A stretch of DNA of 64,000 nucleotides, taken from positions 64,001 through 128,000 of the IMG/VR virus record IMGVR_UViG_3300043432_000485. One strand, given 5' to 3'. The notes under the pieces are model-generated. The model was not told the origin of the DNA and ran no database searches. It saw only the letters and a list, made by a program, of their open reading frames with translations. The translations under genes were made by a program, and so were the position numbers. Positions within the stretch are counted from its first letter, which is position 1. Each line of letters begins with the position of its first letter. This DNA comes from a virus. Taxonomy: Duplodnaviria > Caudoviricetes. Below, piece after piece: positions 2,489-20,333 of the stretch.

Positions 2489-2887
2489 ATGAAACCCCAC
2501 CTTCATGCCAAGAACTCCGCCAAGAAGTATGGCGGAGTTCCTGAGGACTACCAAGAGGTGCACGACTTCTTCGACAGCTCCAAGGCAGCTGTTCCGGACG
2601 TTCGGCACAGGGCGATCCTCCATAGTGCCTTCGGGATCTTCCTCCTGGAGAGGGTGTTCGGTATCACGATCACCAACTCAGAGGGCAAGAAGGTATCGGT
2701 CCGAGACCTAGGCGAGGATCACGTATTGGAGGATCTCGGGTTCATCCCCACCATGGAACGCTGGCTCAAGAACATGCCAATCGAGGGTTGGATGGGTGGG
2801 GCGCGACGCAAGCAAGTTCACCGTTTTGAGGCCTACACGAAAGAGGAACAAGATGACAACGCAAACGACGCTCAAAGAGTTGACTGA
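2489..2887 (+). CDS. DUF6915-like protein
   Basis: H-x-x-x-SAKKYGG..EDY..VH.FFD.SK...D.RHRA.LH and H..ED.GFIP pattern, recalled as DUF6915. Confidence 0.65.
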   Translation: MKPHLHAKNSAKKYGGVPEDYQEVHDFFDSSKAAVPDVRHRAILHSAFGIFLLERVFGITITNSEGKKVSVRDLGEDHVLEDLGFIPTMERWLKNMPIEGWMGGARRKQVHRFEAYTKEEQDDNANDAQRVD

Positions 2888-3302
2888 TCAGTTGGAAGCC
2901 CTTCGGGCGCGGTTCGCCGTAGAAGGTAAGGCAGCCGTCCATGAGTCCCTGAAGGACCTGTTTCAGAAGCACCCGTTGCTCAGTGAGATCCATTGGACTC
3001 AGTACACACCATGGTTCAATGACGGGGAGCCTTGCGTATTCCACACGCATGACATCGACTACACGTTTGATGGCACCGAGTATGAGTCGTACGATGACCC
3101 CGGCAAGAAGTGGGATCGCGTGGGTCAAAAGTACGTGTCCGTTCAAGTCCCCGCTCCGCTGGCCGACGCCTACCGGGCTGTCAAAGAGTTGCACGATCAG
3201 TTCTCGTCCGCCGAAGAGGTCATGCAACAAGTGTTCGGGGATCACGTCAAGGTGACAGCCACCAAGGACGGTATCTCAGTCGATGAGTACGAGCACGACT
3301 GA
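2853..3302 (+). CDS. hypothetical protein
   Basis: ATG at 2853 after GAGGA; contains WTQYTPWFNDGEPCVF; last gene of the + strand operon. Confidence 0.65.
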   Translation: MTTQTTLKELTDQLEALRARFAVEGKAAVHESLKDLFQKHPLLSEIHWTQYTPWFNDGEPCVFHTHDIDYTFDGTEYESYDDPGKKWDRVGQKYVSVQVPAPLADAYRAVKELHDQFSSAEEVMQQVFGDHVKVTATKDGISVDEYEHD

Positions 3303-3305
3303 ACT

Positions 3306-4190
3306 TCAGACCTGGAGCCACGTGGAACGATGCATCCATGGCTCCAGGGCATGCAAGAAGATCCCGACCGCCTTACGCCATTTCTCCTGATTGTGCTTGG
3401 CCAAGACCTCGAACAGTCCTTGGCCAAGCATCGAGAACTCGGGGGTGAGAGCACGGGGAATTACGACCTTCCTCTTCGCTCCCCTCGTGTAGAGCGCCAG
3501 TAACTCCGGGAGTCGTTTTTGAATGTCGTCTCGGGTGGCCGGAGCATCTTCTAGATCAGGATCTCCGGTCCGTTCGTATTCCAAGGCCATGTCCCGGATG
3601 TGCCGGAGCTTGTTCTCCCACTTGCGGATCTCATCCTTGAGCACAGTGTAGAACTCGACGTCATCCAGTCGGTGCCGAGTGAACTTGTCCCCCCTGGCAT
3701 TCTGATCGACCTCATCCAGCATACGAGCTGGAGGGACACCGGGTTTTGCCGGCACCCCCGCCGCGTCCAGGACTTCGCCCATGAAATGTTGGGTCCAGTG
3801 AGTCAGCTCATGCTCGACTGTTTCCACGTCAGGCCCGGATGAAAGGACTGTTGGGAACAGCTCGATCAACCTAGTCCCATGGTTGCGACCACCGACGGCT
3901 TGGGATTTGGGTTTGAACTGGACCTTCACAGTCAAGGAGACCGGTAGGACTGAGTCCAAAGCTTCCTTCAGACTAGACATGCGAGGATAGTACCGCCACC
4001 CTTGCAAGGTATGATCGGTGACCTCGAATGTCTTAGAGACAACGTTCTTGGGCTTCTTGGCCCCTTTTCTCTCGGCCCACACGCCAGTGAGCCAATCGAG
4101 GATGTCCTGTAGCAAGAGAGGCGGGACCGCCACTAGTCCGGCATGTCTCAGGAACCTGTCCAGCACAACCTGGGAAGAGACCGTGTCCAT
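3306..4190 (-). CDS. putative zincin-like metallopeptidase, possibly virion-internal
   Basis: HELTH (HExxH) plus downstream HRLDDVEFY; N-terminal VVLDRFLRHAG tag. Confidence 0.55.
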   Translation of the reverse strand: MDTVSSQVVLDRFLRHAGLVAVPPLLLQDILDWLTGVWAERKGAKKPKNVVSKTFEVTDHTLQGWRYYPRMSSLKEALDSVLPVSLTVKVQFKPKSQAVGGRNHGTRLIELFPTVLSSGPDVETVEHELTHWTQHFMGEVLDAAGVPAKPGVPPARMLDEVDQNARGDKFTRHRLDDVEFYTVLKDEIRKWENKLRHIRDMALEYERTGDPDLEDAPATRDDIQKRLPELLALYTRGAKRKVVIPRALTPEFSMLGQGLFEVLAKHNQEKWRKAVGIFLHALEPWMHRSTWLQV

Positions 4191-6391
4191 CAGTCGTCCA
4201 GCTTGTCGATGATGGTGCCGTCTTTCATGTACGCGGGCTCCATCCCCGGAGCCAGGTACTGATTGCTCAGCGTGCTGGGTTCGTGCCCGAGTTCCTCTGC
4301 AACCTCTTCCAAGGCCTCTTCGAACTCGGCCTTGAGCTTCTCTTCCTTATCCTTGGGGTCAGACGGGAGAGTGCCTTTACGCGCCTTCTTGAGGGCCTTC
4401 TGCATGAGACTGTTGGCACTTAATCCGCGCAAGTCCTTGGCTGTGATCTCAAATGGCTCAAGGTACTCATTCACCTTGGCGGCCGTTATCGTTACATCGT
4501 CATTCGAGAACAGGCAGCCATCCTTGCCATCGGCTTCTTTGTATGCCTGACGCAACGCCGATAGGATAGCAGGGGTTGACACGGTCTTCTCGTGTTTCAC
4601 TCCGGACTTCCCCACGTACTTGATGGCCGCGCTCCCGGACCCCAACGTGATGTGGCTCTTCTTCCAGCCAGTCACCCCGTAGTGGGGATCACCTGAATCG
4701 TTCTTCTCACCCTTGGCTGACTCCTCGTTGCCCACTCGTTCATGGGTCTCGTCAATCAAGGCAACCGCCAAAGCAACCATTCTAGTTTCGGGGTCCTTTG
4801 CCTTCAGGTCCGACTTGTACTTGGCACGCAGCTTGTCCACCTTGCCACTGAATTTCTCCAGACGCTCGGCCTTGTCATTGTTCCGCTTGGAGACGGCCTT
4901 GTCAGAGTAGACATAGACGGTAGTCTTCCCCTTGCCGTTGGCCTTAGGGACTTCCTTCTTCTCCGTGTACTTGGCCAGCACCACATTGGGCAGATCAGCC
5001 GGACTCAACTCCAGGTTGCCGTCCAACAGCGCATCGGCCATCGAGTCATTGTCGTCCCAGTTGAAAGCTCGGCCCTCGCTAGGCAAGTTGGCCGGCACAC
5101 CGGTGAACCGCTCCAGCACTTTGAGAGAGATGTTGAGTGCGTTTCGGTAGCGTGATAGGACTTTCTCAGCCTGGCTCGCTGTCCTGACTCCAGGAAGGAT
5201 CATCTGCAACCAGTGCAACACCAATGGGTCAACGGTGCGGGGGCCATAACCAACCAACATCCCGATTGCTTCACAGAAAGCCTCCTCAGGATTCTTACCG
5301 GCATACCCGGTGATTGGATTCTGAGGGACGGTGAACACCTTGCCAGCCGCGAGTGCCGCCTCGAACTCTTCCCTAGATTGGATGTCCCTGGAGGACCGGT
5401 CATGGTTGCGCCCCAGCAGGTCCATCTGGATCGCGAGCGTTGGATCCTTGTCCTTCAGTAGCTCTGGCATTTGAAACAGCCAAGCCCCCTTGGGCCAAAT
5501 TTCCAATGCTCGTTGAGCGTCAAAGGGTCCATAGTTACCCCTGACGGCAGTGTTCCAGAACTCCTGGTCTGAGCCACTAAGATAGACACGATACAAGTGA
5601 TGCCCCATCTCATGGGCTATCACGTGAGCCATCTCGTTTCCGTGCTTGTAATCCCCAAAGGCGGACATGATGATCTCGATATGGTCACCCTTGTAGATCC
5701 CGCCCTCATCAAGCTTACGCAGGTACGCGATCAGCTTGATCGGCAGCATAGTCTTCAGCATCAGCGGAAGCACCTGTTGAGCCCGCTTCTTGAAGATTTT
5801 CAGGCCCTCTCGGAAGCGCTCCATATACTCGGCTTGACGCTCTTGATTGGACTCATAGTCGTAACCCACCACCGTGACAGTGAACCCCTCGATAGTGACC
5901 TTCTCCTGGTCCGGTATCTTTGCAGAGAACCCAGGCTTCTTGGTCACGCGCTGGTAGTACTGCAGGCACTCATCGAAGTCCTTCCAGAATACTCGCGCTT
6001 TGCCCTTGATCCGGGTGGCCCACTTCTCACTCTTGGTACTCAGAGTGTAGAGAGCCGCTCCCTCGGACATACTGTCGTACTCACCTCCCACCGTCGGTAG
6101 AGGGAAATCCAGTTCGATGTAGAAACCCCAAGCTGACTTGCGCAGCTTCTTGTCAATGTACTGCTTGTCGCTGTCTGACAGGTCTTCACTGTACTTGAAG
6201 TCATGGTTCAAGAAGTGATCGAAGAACACCTCGTTGAAGTTGCGCTTGAACGTCTTGACTGCATCCCTAAGGAGAGCCCCGTCCTGGTAGGTCTTGACCC
6301 TCGGGACGTTCTTCATCAAGGTCAGGAAGTCCTTGCGCAGCTTCTCGATGTAGGGTGAATCGAGGGTGATCTCTTTGGCCGTCTTGTTCAC
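4190..6391 (-). CDS. fusion of HExxH metallopeptidase and DNA topoisomerase IB
   Basis: HEMGH and ITGYAGKNPEEAFCE in the N-terminal half. The C-terminal part has TopoIB residues HERVGN (R), VGKSG (K), KDLRGLSAN (R) and LGHEPSTLSNQYL (H, Y). The GTG at 6391 overlaps the upstream TGA (GTGA). Confidence 0.82.
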   Translation of the reverse strand: MNKTAKEITLDSPYIEKLRKDFLTLMKNVPRVKTYQDGALLRDAVKTFKRNFNEVFFDHFLNHDFKYSEDLSDSDKQYIDKKLRKSAWGFYIELDFPLPTVGGEYDSMSEGAALYTLSTKSEKWATRIKGKARVFWKDFDECLQYYQRVTKKPGFSAKIPDQEKVTIEGFTVTVVGYDYESNQERQAEYMERFREGLKIFKKRAQQVLPLMLKTMLPIKLIAYLRKLDEGGIYKGDHIEIIMSAFGDYKHGNEMAHVIAHEMGHHLYRVYLSGSDQEFWNTAVRGNYGPFDAQRALEIWPKGAWLFQMPELLKDKDPTLAIQMDLLGRNHDRSSRDIQSREEFEAALAAGKVFTVPQNPITGYAGKNPEEAFCEAIGMLVGYGPRTVDPLVLHWLQMILPGVRTASQAEKVLSRYRNALNISLKVLERFTGVPANLPSEGRAFNWDDNDSMADALLDGNLELSPADLPNVVLAKYTEKKEVPKANGKGKTTVYVYSDKAVSKRNNDKAERLEKFSGKVDKLRAKYKSDLKAKDPETRMVALAVALIDETHERVGNEESAKGEKNDSGDPHYGVTGWKKSHITLGSGSAAIKYVGKSGVKHEKTVSTPAILSALRQAYKEADGKDGCLFSNDDVTITAAKVNEYLEPFEITAKDLRGLSANSLMQKALKKARKGTLPSDPKDKEEKLKAEFEEALEEVAEELGHEPSTLSNQYLAPGMEPAYMKDGTIIDKLDD

Positions 6392-6891
6392 TGGGTGCCA
6401 CCAATTCTGCGCAGGTCCCGCAGCGCTGCCTTCAGCGACGGCCAGCCCATGTCCTCGCACCAAACGGATCCGCTGCGGTGCAAGGATTGGAACCGCTGCG
6501 GCCCGGACCCCATGTCCTGGATCCGGCACATCCCATCCTCGCTAGCCCAGACCGTTATCCCCGCGGGATCATCGTCCTCGACAAATTGGGAGGCCTGGGC
6601 CGTGCGGTATCGGGAGGCAACCGCCGCCTTCTTCTTTCGAAGCTGCTCGGTTTCCTCATCGTAGATCTTCTTGAACTTGGCCGAATCTTCCTCATTCATA
6701 AGCCGATAAGGTAGTAGATTCCTAGTCTTAGACTTCTTCCGCCCCTTGGGGACGGGCTCTATCTCTACCTTGAGGGTCTCCCCTTCACGGCGCACGTCCG
6801 TGATGATGCCCGCCCGGTTCTTGAACCGTCCGAACCACACGAACATGCCCGGCTTCGGGTCAGGGATCTTGATCGTGGTTTCTTCGGTCAT
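6388..6891 (-). CDS. hypothetical protein with V-x-x-R-Y tag
   Basis: 167 aa; SH3-like beta-rich N-terminus; internal AAVASRYRTA. Confidence 0.65.
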   Translation of the reverse strand: MTEETTIKIPDPKPGMFVWFGRFKNRAGIITDVRREGETLKVEIEPVPKGRKKSKTRNLLPYRLMNEEDSAKFKKIYDEETEQLRKKKAAVASRYRTAQASQFVEDDDPAGITVWASEDGMCRIQDMGSGPQRFQSLHRSGSVWCEDMGWPSLKAALRDLRRIGGTQ

Positions 6892-6927
6892 CCTGATAGG
6901 ACCTTTGATAAGAGCACTACTCCAGAG

Positions 6928-7248
6928 TCAGAACCAGATCTCGGTGATCTCTAGGTCAGGTACACCGACTGGCACCCGGATCAACCCGTAGGGAATGACC
7001 GCCCTCGCTTCCAGCATTGAGTCCGAGCGGATCCTAGGTTCCGTGGCTGTCCGGATCTGACCCGTAGGGGACACTTGCCAGTGCCGCACCACGAAGGACA
7101 GGTACGGATTGGTTTCCCTGTGGACCACCCAGATATTGGTGGCTCCACAGGAGTCCGTTCGTACCCTCCACTCGGCTGGGATCTGGGTACCAAGAGGGCC
7201 TACGATGGCTCTCACCCATCTAGGCTTGTATGGCTGCCGCGGCGACAT
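6928..7248 (-). CDS. hypothetical protein
   Basis: Likely start MSPRQPYKPRW at 7248; fills the gap below the DHH gene. Confidence 0.5.
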   Translation of the reverse strand: MSPRQPYKPRWVRAIVGPLGTQIPAEWRVRTDSCGATNIWVVHRETNPYLSFVVRHWQVSPTGQIRTATEPRIRSDSMLEARAVIPYGLIRVPVGVPDLEITEIWF

Positions 7249-8278
7249 TGGACTCGTATCTTCCAAGAGCAGACGCAAACAGGGAGTAAGGATCCTGGCT
7301 TCCAGTTCTTGGGTCAAACTGTATAGCGAAGCCTGCAGCCTTAGTATGACCGCCACCGCCCAGTGACTTGCAGAAAGATGCGCAGTCGAAGTCGGTGTGG
7401 GATCTGACTGAGAATACGACTTTGGCGACTCCATCTGCCTCGATGCCCACGTAACCGAAGCCGACAACCAGGTCAGCCTCCCGCCCGAGCAACTCAGCCG
7501 CGTCACTAGCGATGGGGGAATGGCCCGAGAACAGCTTCACCCGGGTGCCACGGGGTGTGGTGAAACCGTAGGCACCCTCGACGGCGCGCTTGACCGTCTT
7601 CTGATGCTTTTCAATCAGAACCTTTCCAAGTGACTTTCGATCCTGCCACAGCTTCAAGTTGGCTTCCTTGAACGGGCGCTTGATGGCCAGCCAGGCTTCG
7701 ATTGGCATGAATCGAAGGGCCTCCACCAGCACGCTGGCATCCCCCCAAAACGGGTCCTTGGTCTGCCAGGTGTCACGCACCCCGGACAGATGCGCGAAAT
7801 GGGCTGCTTCCGCTACCTCGTAGAGTGAGTCCTGTCTCAGCTCGTCAAGGTCATCCTCTTCTGTCAAAGTCCCTGCATAGGCCAAAGCATCAAGGTCCAG
7901 TCGAACTTGATGCAGGGGCAGCCAGACCTCCCGATAGGCCAGCACCGCCCCGCACACTCCGGGATCCGTGACCTCATCACCGAACACCCCATTCTCACCG
8001 AACATCGCTACAACAGCTTTGGCCGTCTTATGATGGTCAAGCACCAGGGCGCCAGCATCAACAAACTCCTGAGCGCGCTCCGGGAGAGGAGAGAAGTCAC
8101 ACCACAGTTGGTTGGGGCCAGGGGTAAACGCCCGGTACTCTGGGGTGTTGTATTGCAGGAAGTGGATCTTCACATCCGGAAGCACATCGTGGATCAAGAT
8201 CGCTGTCGCAACCCCATCCGCACAAGAGTCATGCGTGATGACATCGGTGATAGTCAGTAGCTTGGAGATTGGAATCAT
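7220..8278 (-). CDS. DHH/DHHA1-family phosphoesterase
   Basis: THDSCADG, WCDFS, VLDHH and C-terminal GGGGHTKAAGF. Confidence 0.85.
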   Translation of the reverse strand: MIPISKLLTITDVITHDSCADGVATAILIHDVLPDVKIHFLQYNTPEYRAFTPGPNQLWCDFSPLPERAQEFVDAGALVLDHHKTAKAVVAMFGENGVFGDEVTDPGVCGAVLAYREVWLPLHQVRLDLDALAYAGTLTEEDDLDELRQDSLYEVAEAAHFAHLSGVRDTWQTKDPFWGDASVLVEALRFMPIEAWLAIKRPFKEANLKLWQDRKSLGKVLIEKHQKTVKRAVEGAYGFTTPRGTRVKLFSGHSPIASDAAELLGREADLVVGFGYVGIEADGVAKVVFSVRSHTDFDCASFCKSLGGGGHTKAAGFAIQFDPRTGSQDPYSLFASALGRYESNVAAAAIQA

Positions 8279-8290
8279 AGGTCATAGATG

Positions 8291-8296
8291 TACACC
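8291..8296 (-). promoter_or_regulatory. GGTGTA element upstream of DHH gene
   Basis: 12 nt before the ATG at 8278. Confidence 0.55.
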
Positions 8297-8302
8297 GATA
8301 GT

Positions 8303-8812
8303 TCAACCGAAGTCGTATACTGTCACTGAAACATCTGAGAGTTGTCGGACGATGATGGGCTCAACAGCATCCCAACTTCCCCCACCGAGACCTGTTCCGA
8401 TCCTGGGCATGAACACAGACGCTCCTAGTTGTTTGGCCAACACTGCCACCTTTCCCAAGCACTTTTCCAGAGCCCCATATCGTATGGGTGGGGTCGAATT
8501 AGGTACCGACGATTGGTGCAAAGCTTGGTTGTTTATCCCATAACCAGACTGTGCAATGCAATTCACTACATGAAGGTTAGGCGCGACTTTAATCGCTTGA
8601 ATGTTCCCAAGTTCGAACGCCTGACCCTCCCAGTACTTCTGGCGGAACCACTGTCGATAGGCTGCTTCAGGTTCAGGCCAACGCTTGGAGATTGCAAGTA
8701 CGAATCCGGCGCCCCATCCATTTTTGTCGTTTGACACGTGTACGAGCAGACCGTGTTGCTCAGGGGTTACACCAGGTCTAGTTGCGTCCCCTTTTTTGTA
8801 CGTGATTGCCAT
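8303..8812 (-). CDS. Macro-domain (Appr-1''-p processing / ADP-ribosylhydrolase) protein
   Basis: YKKGDAT, HVSNDKNGWGAGF, VVNCIAQ and MPRIGTGLGGGSW. Confidence 0.85.
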   Translation of the reverse strand: MAITYKKGDATRPGVTPEQHGLLVHVSNDKNGWGAGFVLAISKRWPEPEAAYRQWFRQKYWEGQAFELGNIQAIKVAPNLHVVNCIAQSGYGINNQALHQSSVPNSTPPIRYGALEKCLGKVAVLAKQLGASVFMPRIGTGLGGGSWDAVEPIIVRQLSDVSVTVYDFG

Positions 8813-9963
8813 GCTGTCACCTTCCTACACCAATCTCTGAATTCTGGTATTGTCAGGGTGCGACGCATGAGATTGATGCGCTTGGACACCCATTGAACGT
8901 TGTCTATAGTGTACCCAAGATTATTGTCGATTCGATCAAGAGAGGCGGTCGTGTTATGTCCGGAACTCGCAGACCCGAAATAAATAGGCTCCAGGGACAG
9001 AGCGCAAACTTTTCCTTGGGACTCAAAAAGTGACCAAGCATCCCCTACAGATAGTTGAAACGGTAATCTTCTCCGGGTAGCACTGTCTATATACCCAGCC
9101 CACAGAGAACCCCTAATCTCTCGGAATCCGGTGAATTGCAAGCAGCCACACGATTGAGTTGTGCCCCTTACGATCGAATCCAAGCGAGCCGTGATCACGA
9201 CCCCACAGGCGCACAATGCTTCCGCATAAAGTGCCGCATAGGGCAAAGCTTGACGAGACACAGATAGGATCTTCAAACGACTAAAAGAGGCTCCAATATA
9301 CTTAGAGTACTTTGGCTCCCTCAAGGGCTGTACTTGAATGCTGTCAAGCACTGAAGCCGTACGAAACTCCACGGGATTGGTCACTTGGGCACATAGAGAA
9401 ATAAAAGCGTCTACCGATAGCTTGTGCCTCATCAAGTTGATTGTCTTGTGCGTCCACTGCAGATTACCGATCTCGTACCCTATAGATGAATCCAACCTAT
9501 CCAGTGAGGCGGTGGTTTCCGACGGCTTCGCCACTCTGCCGAATCCGATCTGTACCCCAGACATCTTACACATACGAGATTGAGACTCATACAAATCCCA
9601 ACCATGCTCTATGGAAATATGGAATGCTAGGCCTCTTCTCTCAGCGTCACGGCGATAACCATACCACACTTTGCCCCGCAGTTCCTTGTAGCCTTGATAC
9701 CCTGCATTACGTTCACCGAGACTCTGTTCACCAGCTCGTTCACGATGATAGCAGCCACAGGATACGGTCTTTCCGTGCCGCAAGGCTGCTGTCTTGACAT
9801 CTTTGGTCGTCCCGCAATCACATCTGCACGTAGCTTTGTAGCTCCAAACTCCAGGGCGGTTACCGGGGATGTGCTTCAAAGACAATATGGTCAATCGACC
9901 GAATTTTACACCAATCAGATATTCTGGTGGCCTGGGTTTACTTCCTTGGCGGGGCATACCCAC
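8767..9963 (-). CDS. homing endonuclease, HNH-like, with two tandem modules
   Basis: Two copies of G.KF.RL.I...C.C.CG...T.SCGC...SLDR.D...GY...N.QW; visibly more AT-rich than its neighbours. Confidence 0.8.
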   Translation of the reverse strand: MGMPRQGSKPRPPEYLIGVKFGRLTILSLKHIPGNRPGVWSYKATCRCDCGTTKDVKTAALRHGKTVSCGCYHRERAGEQSLGERNAGYQGYKELRGKVWYGYRRDAERRGLAFHISIEHGWDLYESQSRMCKMSGVQIGFGRVAKPSETTASLDRLDSSIGYEIGNLQWTHKTINLMRHKLSVDAFISLCAQVTNPVEFRTASVLDSIQVQPLREPKYSKYIGASFSRLKILSVSRQALPYAALYAEALCACGVVITARLDSIVRGTTQSCGCLQFTGFREIRGSLWAGYIDSATRRRLPFQLSVGDAWSLFESQGKVCALSLEPIYFGSASSGHNTTASLDRIDNNLGYTIDNVQWVSKRINLMRRTLTIPEFRDWCRKVTAWQSRTKKGTQLDLV

Positions 9964-10009
9964 CAGATACTACAAAACCTTTATTGGATCTCCCATAGTT
10001 ATACAAATG

Positions 10010-10285
10010 TCATCTGAAGCAGGGGTGATTGAGGATGAGCCAAGCCCCCTTCTCGGTCAGCAGGATATTCCCATGATGGTGCCATCCCATCCCCCCACCT
10101 CTGATAAGGCCGTGCTCGGCCAACAATTTGGCCACAGACATAGATTCCTGATCCACGTGTAAGGATAACTGTCGAGGGGGCCGGCCATCCGCTATGACCA
10201 TGTCAGCCAAGGCCCTAAACAGAGCAACTTCTGGGCCTGTCAGGTAAGTGCCATCATCTAAGGTTAGGGCCTCTGCTTCATCCAT
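10010..10285 (-). CDS. hypothetical protein
   Basis: 91 aa ORF with GAGG SD and a GGTGTA element upstream. Confidence 0.6.
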   Translation of the reverse strand: MDEAEALTLDDGTYLTGPEVALFRALADMVIADGRPPRQLSLHVDQESMSVAKLLAEHGLIRGGGMGWHHHGNILLTEKGAWLILNHPCFR

Positions 10286-10293
10286 GAGTACCT

Positions 10294-10689
10294 CTACACC
10301 ATCGGGAACAGGATCTCGAACCGCACGCTTGCCGCCCAGAGCTTCTCCATCATGTCGTGCGTCCCTCGATTCTGGGTTTTCGTCACCGGCCCGGTAGAGA
10401 ACCCATATGCCTTGTCAAGCTTGACTCCGGAGCTATCGGGGTGCTCGGAAGCCAGCATCTTCGCGTTGCGCATGTGACCGGCTGCCTTTCCGAACTCATC
10501 CCACTCCTCAGGGGTCACCGGATACGCTCGAATTTCAAACCCTAGGGATCTGCCCACTCGGTCTGCCGCCTTATCGGCTCCGCGAGCATTGCCGTGGATC
10601 AGAATGGTGTCCTTGGGTAACTTGGACAGGATCCGAAGAATCACCCCTTCCTGCGCCCATTCTCTAGATCCGAAAACCAAGACCTTCAT
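10294..10689 (-). CDS. SLOG-family protein (DUF2493 / YspA-like)
   Basis: MKVLVFGSREW, LIHGNARGAD, W..FGKAAG..RN..M and GT..M. Confidence 0.8.
   Translation of the reverse strand: MKVLVFGSREWAQEGVILRILSKLPKDTILIHGNARGADKAADRVGRSLGFEIRAYPVTPEEWDEFGKAAGHMRNAKMLASEHPDSSGVKLDKAYGFSTGPVTKTQNRGTHDMMEKLWAASVRFEILFPMV
10295..10300 (-). promoter_or_regulatory. GGTGTA element
   Basis: 9 nt before the ATG at 10285. Confidence 0.55.
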
Positions 10690-16849: not shown

Positions 16850-17278
16850 CTACACTTTGTGCGTTTTTGGCTGATACCCGTGACTGCACGGTTTGACCGT
16901 GTACCGCAGCGCGTAACCGATCGATTGCAGGACCTGGAGGGTAACGGAAGCTGAAGCCGCTGCAGAGCCGTCGACTCCGAGGGGGTACTCCACGTCCACC
17001 CTGATTTGCCGGCGCAAGCCTGACTTCTCCTGGGCGGCCGTAAGGGGTCCGGAGGACTGGTGCCCCACAACCTTGAGGGGCACCGCAACGTCGAAGTCCT
17101 GTCCCTCAATCTGGATGTCCAAGGACTCCCCGTTAATTGAACGGATCACATCAATGTTGAAAGGTTTCGCAATTTTGCGGCCCTCCTCGAACAGCACGGA
17201 CATGACCTTGGTCTGAGGGCCGGCGGCGGTGCGGTCAGCGTACTTGCGCGCGACTTCTTCTGCCAAGCCCTTGCTCAT
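16850..17278 (-). CDS. hypothetical protein with N-terminal tag
   Basis: Real start is MSKGLAEEVARKYADRTAAG at 17278, with a 4-bp overlap with the upstream gene. Confidence 0.6.
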   Translation of the reverse strand: MSKGLAEEVARKYADRTAAGPQTKVMSVLFEEGRKIAKPFNIDVIRSINGESLDIQIEGQDFDVAVPLKVVGHQSSGPLTAAQEKSGLRRQIRVDVEYPLGVDGSAAASASVTLQVLQSIGYALRYTVKPCSHGYQPKTHKV

Positions 17279-17778
17279 GACCCCTCGATGAAGCGGGCGG
17301 CCACCGCGGCGCCCACGAACCTGTTCGTCACACGCTCGGAAGCCGTCTTGGGCGCCGTGTGGGTGTACCGGGGCTCGAATTCCTTGGCCAGGTAGTTGAT
17401 GTAGTCGGCCAGGTACTTGCAGACTTGAGCCGGTGTGCCCGTCTTGGCCCGGAACTTCTTGGGCTGCTTCTCTCCGTGCCCCGCGTAGAGGGAGATGCTC
17501 ATCTCTACCTTCACCTTGCCGGTCGGGGCCGGCGCGTTCTCGTCCTTCTTGTCCCACCCGTCCACGAAGAACAGCGCCCGGTTGTTCTCGGCCTCGGCAC
17601 CACCGCCCGCCGAACCCACCCCAGGAGGCAAGTTGACGAAATTGATGGACATCATGTCGGATTGACCGAGGGAGTTACGACGCACCTTGACTTGGCGGCC
17701 GTTTGCTTTGGTCAATTTTTCCAACTCGGCGGAAAAATCGGCAGAACTGAGAATTTCGGCAGCAGCTTTGTTGGTCAT
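17275..17778 (-). CDS. hypothetical protein with C-terminal tags
   Basis: Ends KTASERVTNRFVGAAVAARFIEGS. Confidence 0.65.
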   Translation of the reverse strand: MTNKAAAEILSSADFSAELEKLTKANGRQVKVRRNSLGQSDMMSINFVNLPPGVGSAGGGAEAENNRALFFVDGWDKKDENAPAPTGKVKVEMSISLYAGHGEKQPKKFRAKTGTPAQVCKYLADYINYLAKEFEPRYTHTAPKTASERVTNRFVGAAVAARFIEGS

Positions 17779-17808
17779 ACCCTTACTAGACAGTATGCCA
17801 TCAAAACT

Positions 17809-19080
17809 CTACCCATGCGCAACCGATTTTCGCATCACGACAGCGGAACCGGGTTTGGCCACAGCTTCCGCGGTGATCCGGATGCTGGCGATGTCCTGGT
17901 CCTCTGGGGCCTCGTAGCTGTAGGGCTTTAGCACCTGTTCTACCACCGTTCGAAGCGCTCGGGCGCCTGTGCTGTATTGCTTGGCCTTGCGAGCGATCGC
18001 CAACAGCGCTTCGGGGTCAAACTGCAGGTCAATGCCGTCCAGGGAGAAGAGGGCTCGGAACTGCTTGCACAGGGAATGGTCAGGCTTGACCAACACGTCG
18101 ATCATCTCGGCCTCGGTCAGCTCAAAGGTGCTGCTCACGATGGGGAGCCGGCCCACGATCTCCGGAATGAGTCCGAACTCTTCTAGGTCCTGTACCGTGA
18201 CTTGGTGGTAGAGATCCGACTTCTCGAATTTCTTGCGGCCTTCCTGCCCAAAACCCATCCCGGAACTCTTGTTGAGCCGCTGCTCGATCAATGGCTCGAT
18301 CCCGGCGAAGCTGCCCGCACAGATGAACAGGATGTTGGTGGTGTCTATGACGTCGATCGTAGACATTCCGGAGACGGCCCTGGATCCTTGACCCCGAGGC
18401 ACCGGTACCTTGGAACCCTCCAGGAGCTTCAATAGGGATTGCTGCACCCCTTCCCCGGTAACGTCCCTGTATCCGGATGCGCTGCGCCCGCTCTTACGCG
18501 CGAGCTTGTCGAACTCGTCCAGGAACACAATGCCCCATTGGGCACGCTCAACATCCTGCTGAGAGTCGGCAAACAGTCCCTGAAGGATGGATTCCACGTC
18601 ATCCCCAACGTATCCAGCTTGCGTGAGGCGGGTAGCGTCGGCGACAAAGAAGGGGACGTCCAGCATGCGGGCGATCGCCCGAGCTAACAAAGTCTTTCCC
18701 GAACCGCTCGGTCCGAGCAACAAGATGTTCGACTTCTCGATCTCCACGGCCTCCCCATCGAGCAGGATGGCCCCGTTTTGCTGGTGCTCAACCTCTCGGC
18801 GGCGGTAGTGCCGATATACCGCGATCGCCAGCTCGCGCTTAGCCTCTGCTTGCCCGATGACCTGACGATCAAGTAGGGCGGTGATCTCCCGGGGCTTCTT
18901 GAGGACCTTCTGCGCCGGTTGCCCAGCCGCGGACTTCAGCTCTTCCTTGCGGAGAGTCTCCGCGGATCTGACGATGCACGTGTTGCAGATGTTGGATCCG
19001 TCCGGGCTCCCGATGAGGTTTTTGACCTCATTACGGGGGCGCCCACAGAAGTTGCACCGCTTGCTTGGATCCTGAGCCAT
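17809..19080 (-). CDS. clpX: ATP-dependent Clp protease ATPase subunit ClpX
   Basis: C4 zinc finger (CNFC..CNTC), GPSGSGKT, GYVG pore-1, LDEFDK, GEGVQQ, FICAGSF, MGF ClpP-docking loop and GARALR. Confidence 0.95.
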   Translation of the reverse strand: MAQDPSKRCNFCGRPRNEVKNLIGSPDGSNICNTCIVRSAETLRKEELKSAAGQPAQKVLKKPREITALLDRQVIGQAEAKRELAIAVYRHYRRREVEHQQNGAILLDGEAVEIEKSNILLLGPSGSGKTLLARAIARMLDVPFFVADATRLTQAGYVGDDVESILQGLFADSQQDVERAQWGIVFLDEFDKLARKSGRSASGYRDVTGEGVQQSLLKLLEGSKVPVPRGQGSRAVSGMSTIDVIDTTNILFICAGSFAGIEPLIEQRLNKSSGMGFGQEGRKKFEKSDLYHQVTVQDLEEFGLIPEIVGRLPIVSSTFELTEAEMIDVLVKPDHSLCKQFRALFSLDGIDLQFDPEALLAIARKAKQYSTGARALRTVVEQVLKPYSYEAPEDQDIASIRITAEAVAKPGSAVVMRKSVAHG

Positions 19081-19089
19081 TCCCCATAT

Positions 19090-19095
19090 TACACC
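19090..19095 (-). promoter_or_regulatory. GGTGTA element upstream of clpX
   Basis: 9 nt before the ATG at 19080. Confidence 0.55.
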
Positions 19096-19097
19096 GA

Positions 19098-20333
19098 TCA
19101 GGAGAGGATCGGGTCAAGCATCGCCTTCAAAGGGGCAGAAAGCTTCCCGATGGCCAAGAAGGATACCATCTCTGCAAAGTTCTCGTCTGGGTGCGTGCCA
19201 GCGTAGCCGGTCACGAAGCTCATGTCTGGGTCAGCCTTGGGTACTGGCAGCTTCATCATCCGCAGCCAGTTGTCCAGAGGCGTGGAGAAACGGTGGGTCG
19301 TGTTGCCCTCTTCCATCCAATTCACAACGACTTTGCGCCGACTGATCTCCACCTTGGAGACGGTCAGCGTCTTGCCCTTGTAGTCGACCTTGTCCCCGGC
19401 CTTCGGGTATAGCTCGGAAGGAATCGGAGGCGGCTCGCTGGAATGGCGAAGCTTCCGGTACATGTCGTTGATCATCGAGCCGCGGCCCGAGAGGAACTTG
19501 TGCTGCAGTCGATGTGCAAGCTCATGGCAAACGATGCGCACGGTATCCCAGTTGTCCGGGGTGTTGGAGCGCACGAACATCTCATCAGCCGATGGCAGAT
19601 AGAATGCAGCCACGTTCTTCTTGTTGTTCACCGTCTGGCTGATGTGGATGTCCCCGTAACACACCTTGCCCAGCCCGATGGAACGCATGGCAGCCTCGGC
19701 CTTGGTGACGAGGTCAACGGCCTTCGCCATCACACTCTTGTCGAACCCGCCGGTGTTGATCAACGTGAACGAACCCGCGGGATATTTGACCTGCTCGGCT
19801 AGCTCTGGGTCCGAGTTGAGCTTCCCCTTGGCGATCGCGGCCTCAGCGGCACCTACTTGCTTGCGGAACTCCAAGCACACCTGCAGATACTTCTGCAGAT
19901 ATTCGAGATCAGCATCGTAAGTCCCGCTGTTGCTCTTGATCCGGATGCTCAGCTTCTTCTTCGTCCAGAAACGAGCCGCGCCCTCGATGGTCTTGCGCAG
20001 CTGAGCGGGCAGAACGTAGGATTGCAAGATGGCCAGGAACAGAAGCATCCCAGTGGTCTGAATTCTCCGGTACTGATACCCGGCTTGAAACTCACCCTTG
20101 ATCTCGTAGCGCATCCGGGAGGTTTGGGTAAGCTCCGCTGATAGCGCTTTGGATGTGTCGAAGTCCTGACGCTTCATCGCGTCAATGAATCCGGTGAGCT
20201 TCTCGATGTCCTTCTTGGCGGGCTCCTCGTTTTGCGTATAGCGCTCTACGTCGAACTTGAACTTCACCAGATCCGATGTGACGTCGGCGATGGCTTTGGC
20301 GGACAGGAAGCGAGCTACGATTCTGTCGTTCAT
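19098..20333 (-). CDS. putative zincin metallopeptidase with N-terminal tag
   Basis: MNDRIVARFLSAKA; HELAH; VTGYAGTHPDENFAE, matching the peptidase half of 4190-6391. Confidence 0.65.
   Translation of the reverse strand: MNDRIVARFLSAKAIADVTSDLVKFKFDVERYTQNEEPAKKDIEKLTGFIDAMKRQDFDTSKALSAELTQTSRMRYEIKGEFQAGYQYRRIQTTGMLLFLAILQSYVLPAQLRKTIEGAARFWTKKKLSIRIKSNSGTYDADLEYLQKYLQVCLEFRKQVGAAEAAIAKGKLNSDPELAEQVKYPAGSFTLINTGGFDKSVMAKAVDLVTKAEAAMRSIGLGKVCYGDIHISQTVNNKKNVAAFYLPSADEMFVRSNTPDNWDTVRIVCHELAHRLQHKFLSGRGSMINDMYRKLRHSSEPPPIPSELYPKAGDKVDYKGKTLTVSKVEISRRKVVVNWMEEGNTTHRFSTPLDNWLRMMKLPVPKADPDMSFVTGYAGTHPDENFAEMVSFLAIGKLSAPLKAMLDPILS

Follow-up and report, generated by a model that had tools for sequence, protein, structure and literature searches.

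The gene at positions 4190–6391 (minus strand) of a 64,000-nucleotide stretch of viral DNA (positions 64,001 to 128,000 of IMG/VR record IMGVR_UViG_3300043432_000485; hereafter the window) from an uncultivated huge freshwater phage encodes a single 733-residue protein, in which a zincin-type metallopeptidase module and a predicted type IB topoisomerase (TopoIB) module are joined by a seam bearing a short peptide signal. This signal, [KR]-x-A-[SA] followed by R-V-A-A-R-[FY] (the latter, an amphipathic peptide, referred to here as the tag), marks module ends and protein termini in hundreds of huge-phage proteins. We tentatively favor the interpretation, at somewhat short of an even chance, that this is a polyvalent protein of the tag-punctuated kind found in huge phages, built of two cassettes, and is probably enzyme cargo loaded into the head. 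The features of the gene are as follows, with confidence given as the predicted local distance difference test score (pLDDT) of AlphaFold2 models.

4190–6391, minus strand: whole gene, 733 codons plus stop, with a GTG start at 6391 and TGA at 4190–4192, from the open reading frame (ORF) list and translation
5936–6379, minus strand: four-helix bundle (residues 5–152), pLDDT above 95 over most of its length
5186–5929, minus strand: zincin-like metallopeptidase core (residues 155–402), from structural alignment and the AlphaFold2 model
5597–5614, minus strand: HEMGHH (residues 260–265), with the two predicted zinc-binding His and catalytic Glu
5270–5305, minus strand: YAGKNPEEAFCE (residues 363–374), in which Tyr363, Glu370 and Glu374 are invariant
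5144–5191, minus strand: module-end signature, R-T-A-S (residues 403–406) and then tag copy 1, EKVLSRY (residues 409–415)
5102–5131, minus strand: tag copy 2, KVLERF (residues 424–429), 9.1 bits
4991–5101, minus strand: acidic linker (residues 431–467), of low confidence (pLDDT below 50)
4949–4990, minus strand: the TopoIB cassette's own leading tag, degenerate, VVLAKYTEKKEV (residues 468–481), which aligns with R-V-A-A-R-Y-K-x-K-K
4193–4963, minus strand: predicted minimal TopoIB (residues 477–733; PF01028), a beta-hairpin with Y-x-Y plus the catalytic domain
4256–4258, minus strand: codon of the predicted catalytic Tyr712, invariant in 37 modules and aligned with the active-site Tyr region of D. 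radiodurans TopIB

ORF 4190–6391 is one intact gene, at the coordinates given for the fusion, with no strand named, in a preliminary description of this DNA. The longest open frame extends to 6529, and the GTG at 6391 is the start that agrees both with homologues and with the recorded gene call (P0002 of our protein collection, 733 residues and identical to the ORF product). Two Logan assemblies, likely of the source sample, contain 4100–6500 in single contigs with zero differences, and a contig from another study spans 4738–5158, which includes part of the seam, with no indel. All seven substitutions listed for this last contig are at third codon positions of the minus frame, and the frame is under purifying selection. 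The junction at about 5100–5200 had been singled out as needing support; contigs cross it without a stop or an indel, so that a stop or assembly error between the domains is excluded as far as contigs can show. An artefactual fusion, whether an assembly chimera, a frameshifted gene pair or a decaying pseudogene, is therefore a reading to which we give almost no weight, as independent contigs span the gene intact, the second-study substitutions are confined to third positions, several homologues have the same architecture, and the catalytic residues are all in place. Two antisense ORFs on the plus strand (4742–5155 and 5597–6100) are spurious, since the contig substitutions all obey the minus frame. 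A search for RNA runs containing the stretch returned none, and promoter and terminator scans of 2500–10500 gave matches at chance level.

The N-terminal 400 or so residues classify by motif and modeled fold as a zincin-type HExxH peptidase, as had been surmised from the motif. Residues H260-E-M-G-H-H265, Y363, E370 and E374 are invariant in 111 homologues; Tyr363 is likely to be the transition-state Tyr and one of the downstream Glu residues (370 or 374) the third zinc ligand, the Tyr-x6-Glu spacing within residues 363–374 being, presumably, that of anthrax lethal factor. In the AlphaFold2 model of the module (pLDDT 88) the four-helix bundle is followed by a zincin core, which VIA-align superimposes on lethal factor 1yqy with a Z-score of 9.5 (157 residues aligned, root-mean-square deviation 3.4), and on PPEP-3, PPEP-2 and Wss1 with Z-scores of 9.3, 8.2 and 7.8 respectively; the bundle has only generic helical-bundle matches (Z 8–10). 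Lethal factor and the Pro-Pro endopeptidases (M34 zincins) are thus the best matches to the core and share with it the HExxH and the downstream Glu, but there is no relation at the sequence level and in our protein the core is preceded by the bundle; the resemblance to lethal factor is one of fold, not of toxin function. Other searches were less revealing. Foldseek against the PDB returned only weak M1 gluzincin and aminopeptidase rows (E about 3e-3), ESM Atlas only zincin-type leads (template modeling score, TM, at most 0.40), and a PDB profile search with the peptidase alignment nothing below E 0.6. Residues 1–405 match no Pfam peptidase family at E ≤0.1, MPTase-PolyVal included (M48 scores 0.34, over the HExxH alone), PHROGs and NCBIfam returned nothing for the protein, and no DNA-binding element was seen in the peptidase module. 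The family is nonetheless large, with 476 clusters at E ≤1e-10 among 1.84 billion representatives.

The C-terminal module is, as judged from its residues, a minimal TopoIB complete in its catalytic positions, and is probably active. It matches Pfam Topoisom_I (PF01028) over residues 501–708 (E 8.8e-29, 100.9 bits against a cut-off of 23.7), and the motifs RVGN, GKSG, KDLRG and GH...QY that had been recognized earlier do occur in that order. When 37 related modules are aligned, the pentad R552, K595, R655, H703 and Y712 proves invariant or almost so. Sequence searches of the PDB return D. radiodurans TopIB, eukaryotic Top1 and variola TopIB (including 2f4q and 2h7f), with the pentad aligned to that of 2f4q, and the AlphaFold2 model of residues 431–733 (pLDDT 83) is matched by Foldseek to variola TopIB 2h7g (E 7.6e-11, TM 0.63), which outranks the tyrosine recombinases, and also to D. 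radiodurans TopIB. Compared with the poxvirus and bacterial enzymes (vaccinia, variola, D. radiodurans), the module has the same pentad, catalytic-domain fold and Y-x-Y hairpin, the invariant Y493-x-Y495 aligning with variola TopIB from residue 70 onward. It differs from them in being only about 20% identical, in being fused to other enzymes, in having an activity that is a prediction, and in retaining, of the DNA-binding domain of about 80 residues usual at the N-terminus, only a single beta-hairpin after a basic tag; the residues upstream are modeled with pLDDT below 50.

The two tag copies previously reported between the domains are real. In a matrix built without this protein, copy 1 scores 13.8 bits and copy 2 9.1 bits, all remaining positions of the 733 residues score below 6 bits, and none of 2000 shuffles produced two matches of 9 bits or more. 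Both copies lie within 30 residues past the end of the peptidase module, and a third, degenerate copy (VVLAKY, residues 471–476) aligns with the tag that heads every TopoIB module. The seam is therefore the end label of the first cassette set beside the leading label of the second. The stretch that contains copy 2 recurs in P0023, which has a different upstream partner, and the acidic stretch at 431–467 (F-N-W-D-D-N-D-S...) is kept with the cassette in both P0023 and P0003 although it is predicted to be disordered; it may have a role of its own, such as masking the DNA-binding face.

The same punctuation is found widely among huge-phage proteins. In homologues, the tag occurs at 6.8 per 1000 residues outside the module cores and at 0.3 and 0.12 inside them, a 20- to 50-fold difference in density, with a peak of 13.3 per 1000 residues within 40 residues of a boundary or terminus. 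Tags are present in 90 of 103 TopoIB-bearing long proteins, and R-V-A-A-R-Y-K-x-K-K heads 36 other TopoIB modules, even where the module begins the protein. Many proteins, unrelated single-domain ones among them, have one tag about 8 residues from the N-terminus and a second near the C-terminus. The [KR]-x-A-[SA] element closes both kinds of module; 27% of internal tags have it in the 17 residues before them, compared with 1.9% of control windows, a 14-fold excess. In the genome studied here there are nine tagged ORFs where shuffles predict 0.55. Copies of the tag use different synonymous codons, indicating that the constraint acts on the peptide, and we discarded on these grounds the possibility that the tag is a DNA-level recombination site. 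One 297 kb record (G023, loci L031/L090) has seven exact R-V-A-A-R-[FY] coding sites, the most of the records checked. A separate motif, H-E-L-x-H-R-[FY], is picked up by the matrix as a false tag (L026, for example at residue 2521, L035, L011 and others); it identifies a second zincin family, carried by these giant proteins as well, to which a 411-residue gene product of the window (19098–20333) is related.

The two modules behave as independent evolutionary units. Each is found alone, fused with the peptidase first (N-T) or with the TopoIB first (T-N), as the product of adjacent genes, and within proteins of up to 3182 residues, with the peptidase family extending to proteins of 2300–3200 residues. 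The question raised earlier of whether homologues are fused or split thus has no single answer, fused forms in both orders and split forms, adjacent or alone, all being represented. Among the 150 best representatives of the peptidase family 22 carry TopoIB, divided equally between N-T and T-N (11 each), and on the peptidase tree a linked TopoIB must have been gained or lost at least 15 times. Our protein falls in a supported clade of N-T forms with 47–59% identity, and the earlier suggestion of a recent fusion is not borne out by this clade, by the equal frequency of the reverse order or by the repeated gains and losses. At least 542 longer proteins contain the TopoIB cassette, only about one ninth of them together with this peptidase, and in the set of 103 long proteins the peptidase is present in 12; other partners include LPD1, DUF5661, PAP2, a poly(A) polymerase head, 2'-5' RNA ligase, NUDIX, ART-PolyVal, InPase and HD. 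From the tags onward, acidic linker included, the cassettes of P0023 and P0003 share 72% identity with ours. Upstream of it, P0023 has a different domain and P0003 a peptidase with only 47% identity, from which we conclude that cassettes are exchanged at the tagged linker. An intein is carried by at least one of these giants, a TopoIB-bearing polyvalent ORF (alignment A3, loci L057–L115) with matches to Intein_splicing and LAGLIDADG_3.

This overall kind of protein is already known. Polyvalent proteins are multi-domain phage proteins in which a zincin-like peptidase hub is combined with enzymatic effectors in shuffled orders, and the way in which Iyer, Burroughs, Anand, de Souza and Aravind (2017; PMC5512222) recognized their peptidases agrees with our identification of this one. 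Homologues of both our modules are fused to LPD1, ART-PolyVal, InPase and ParB_N, with NUDIX also among the partners, and the presence of LPD1, ART-PolyVal and InPase places the protein in the polyvalent-protein world of Iyer et al. (2017). It also has at least two unrelated effector domains including a zincin-like peptidase, namely the peptidase and the TopoIB, as expected of a polyvalent protein. It departs from the described examples in that its peptidase does not match Pfam MPTase-PolyVal, in having just two modules, and in lying outside a visible head gene block. The 2017 account (PMC5512222) lists no TopoIB module, describes no conserved inter-module peptide and makes no mention of ClpX. 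Literature searches with the tag strings found no paper, and searches on phage TopoIB in virions or in polyvalent proteins found nothing describing this architecture; three features therefore appear undescribed in the literature searched, namely the presence of TopoIB among polyvalent modules, the peptidase family, which has no name, and the code at the boundaries.

A link to the phage head comes from the gene context of relatives. At 31 of the 62 non-redundant loci with the closest TopoIB cassettes, the terminase large subunit gene, the portal gene or both are within 8 kb on the same strand. Two arrangements recur. In one, terminase is followed immediately by a tagged TopoIB of 349 residues, then small genes and then portal, and at 11 loci a stand-alone cassette sits exactly between the two. 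In the other, a giant TopoIB-bearing protein begins 45–55 nt after terminase and portal, and giants that contain the peptidase likewise start right after the portal gene. Such a setting is the classical place for head-internal, ejected proteins. The context of the relatives thus partly supports the earlier idea of a head-loaded and injected TopoIB, making it plausible, and on the question of who reads the tag it carries more weight than evidence from ClpX or from the peptidase (see below).

We propose that the protein is one of the enzymes that such phages would load into the head and deliver with the DNA, and that the labelled linker would be a site at which a head-associated reader or protease docks and probably cuts the chain; it is plausible from the arrangement of the labels that the seam is that of a processed polyprotein. 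The TopoIB would nick and reseal DNA through Tyr712 without ATP, and could relieve torsional stress on a very long genome during ejection and at the start of transcription and replication, while the peptidase might trim polyproteins or attack a host protein. Packaging, cleavage, the identity of the tag reader and the substrates are the parts of this scheme that we infer. A broader proposal, possible but distinctly less probable, is that [KR]-x-A-[SA] plus R-V-A-A-R-[FY] is a general punctuation and address code of huge phages, a portable signal by which any enzyme, fused or free, is docked, cut out and head-loaded for co-injection; this protein would be a cargo of two enzymes, its TopoIB acting as a swivel while a genome exceeding 200 kb enters the cell. 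Such a code would be functionally akin to the capsid targeting sequence of phage T4, but usable at either terminus as well as between domains.

Several observations weigh against cargo status for this protein. The gene itself sits among nucleotide-metabolism rather than structural neighbors, between genes for thymidylate synthase, a DHH phosphoesterase, a macro-domain protein and an HNH protein, in contrast to the head-gene placement of half of the related TopoIB loci. Two other homologues likewise have non-structural neighborhoods. The 203-kb record, which is only 43% complete, yielded neither a terminase nor a portal gene. The terminase-TopoIB-portal order could also reflect a role in DNA packaging rather than one as cargo. 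A Glu-type prohead-protease site before the tag was considered and rejected, Glu not being enriched there (12 of 143). Because most of the N-terminal DNA-binding domain of the poxvirus and bacterial enzymes is missing, both the activity and the specificity of the TopoIB are only predicted, and no cultured phage was found with these cassettes. The record itself (G000; 203,362 bp) is labelled a provirus in IMG/VR, and its completeness estimate is from CheckV; the identical protein is also present on a 340,944-bp contig, showing that a longer assembly of this phage exists.

The tags could alternatively be read by ClpX. The protein would then be an intracellular, unpackaged enzyme, tethered through its tags to the zinc-binding N-domain of phage or host ClpX for delivery, remodeling or timed removal of each tagged module, an interpretation that we consider unlikely but the foremost competitor to the cargo reading. 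A phage ClpX gene with an intact zinc finger (17809–19080, minus strand) is located 11 kb away, flanked by two tagged genes (17275–20333), and the first half of the tag, A-L-[RK]-V-A, resembles the tail of SspB as well as LKxh, the reported consensus of peptides binding the ClpX zinc-binding N-domain (PMC7226468), a sequence resemblance that is only a lead. ClpX is present in 9 of 16 tag-bearing records compared with none of 7 tag-free records; among complete TopoIB-bearing genomes it is present in 7 of 10. The same 7 of 10 pattern is seen, however, for a control, the unrelated neighboring gene for the DHH phosphoesterase, so that co-occurrence with ClpX is a clade signature and not a specific link, and this signal does not single out ClpX as the tag reader. 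Moreover, no phage ClpX is found in five complete or near-complete tag-bearing genomes (G007, G021, G058, G065 and G068), and no ClpP was found in the record, itself incomplete. In G023, no ClpX homologue was found in the available 67% of the genome. The peptidase of our protein is no better as a universal reader and cutter of the tag; it is present in just 2 of 10 complete tag-bearing genomes and therefore cannot be the general processing enzyme, and tag-free genomes with the peptidase exist.

A more conservative alternative, to which we assign a slightly lower probability than to ClpX tethering, is that TopoIB serves as a housekeeping swivel when a very long genome is replicated, transcribed or packed into the head, that the peptidase is an unrelated passenger, and that the tags are conserved linker helices with no reader. 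This would agree with the recognition of TopoIB genes in cultured jumbo phages (phiRSL1, Lu11 and the PaBG group) as DNA-topology genes (PMC7824862), with the stand-alone cassettes between terminase and portal, which are placed as a packaging helper would be, and with the absence of this peptidase from most TopoIB-bearing genomes. It does not account for cassettes embedded with PAP2, poly(A) polymerase, RNA ligase, ART and NUDIX modules, which are not topology functions, and a passive linker fails to explain tags at the extreme ends of unrelated single-domain proteins. By analogy with Wss1 and SPRTN, which degrade eukaryotic Top1 trapped on DNA, the two modules might instead form a self-policing pair in which the peptidase, perhaps with an unfoldase, degrades TopoIB trapped covalently on DNA. 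The fusion of the modules in both orders, their adjacency as separate genes in many phages, and the appearance of Wss1 among the fold matches at Z 7.8 are consistent with such a pairing; nevertheless we think it very improbable, as the peptidase accompanies only 12 of the 103 long TopoIB proteins and 2 of 10 complete TopoIB-bearing genomes, five complete genomes with the peptidase have no TopoIB, the fold is nearer to lethal factor and the PPEP enzymes than to Wss1, and the peptidase module has no visible DNA-binding element.

The protein and its tag also have partial counterparts among known systems. Vaccinia packages its TopoIB in the virion. The capsid targeting sequence of T4 internal proteins and the SspB tail are short peptides that route unrelated proteins to one machine, and by analogy the tag is a portable end peptide of this type, sharing A-L-R-V with the SspB tail; unlike either, it is found at both kinds of terminus and between domains, and is far more widespread. 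The TopoIB of cultured jumbo phages is, like ours, phage-encoded in genomes of more than 200 kb, but the nearest cultured relatives, from Xanthomonas jumbo phages, are only 26–28% identical and have neither the tag nor the peptidase module. In Xanthomonas phage PhiXhv-15 the gene annotated as a topoisomerase is a few kb from the head-tail connector gene.

In an infected cell, polyvalent proteins are believed to act before any other phage protein, and the protein described here, together with its relatives, offers a testable handle on how their modules are separated and routed: a label at module boundaries, a TopoIB cassette that is often between terminase and portal, and a peptidase family for which databases have no model. 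Should the label act as a signal for loading or processing, it would account for the way huge phages furnish their heads with kits of enzymes and could be used to load chosen proteins into phage heads in laboratory strains. A packaged TopoIB would be a parallel to the enzyme in poxvirus virions. Should both suppositions be wrong, the protein is an ordinary, though unannotated, modular phage enzyme.

The genes on either side of the peptidase-TopoIB gene are arranged as follows.

6388–6891, minus strand: previous gene, 167 residues, coupled to the peptidase-TopoIB gene
3306–4190, minus strand: next gene, 294 residues, translationally coupled, with a tag at residue 9

The GTG start at 6391 overlaps the stop of the upstream gene (GTGA) and the TGA at 4190–4192 overlaps the ATG of the downstream gene (TGATG), and the three genes from 6891 to 3306 are therefore translationally coupled. 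The downstream product is related to segments within giant polyvalent proteins of other phages, and both neighbors, together with a tagged gene beside ClpX, are homologous to modules inside such giants elsewhere; in this phage, then, a polyvalent protein is largely divided among separate genes, each with a tag of its own. The upstream product has an internal tag-like A-V-A-S-R-Y followed by R-T-A, and its small N-terminal domain (residues 13–70) is fused behind peptidase modules in P0044, P0047, P0095 and P0105 and is also inside a 3032-residue polyvalent protein.

Similar relationships are seen for the genes flanking ClpX. The gene upstream of ClpX encodes the 411-residue protein mentioned above, which has a tag at residue 5, and its C-terminal part is fused after TopoIB-peptidase in P0026 and is found again inside the 3032-residue protein, around a second HExxH site. 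The gene downstream encodes 167 residues that end with K-T-A-S and two tags. In three related huge phages, the zinc-finger and AAA parts of ClpX are contained in one ORF of 777–795 residues with about 1 kb of extra sequence between them (G012:C1:215753-218050, G029:C1:280076-282370 and G051:C1:277137-279434), and this extra sequence could be an intein or an inserted domain.

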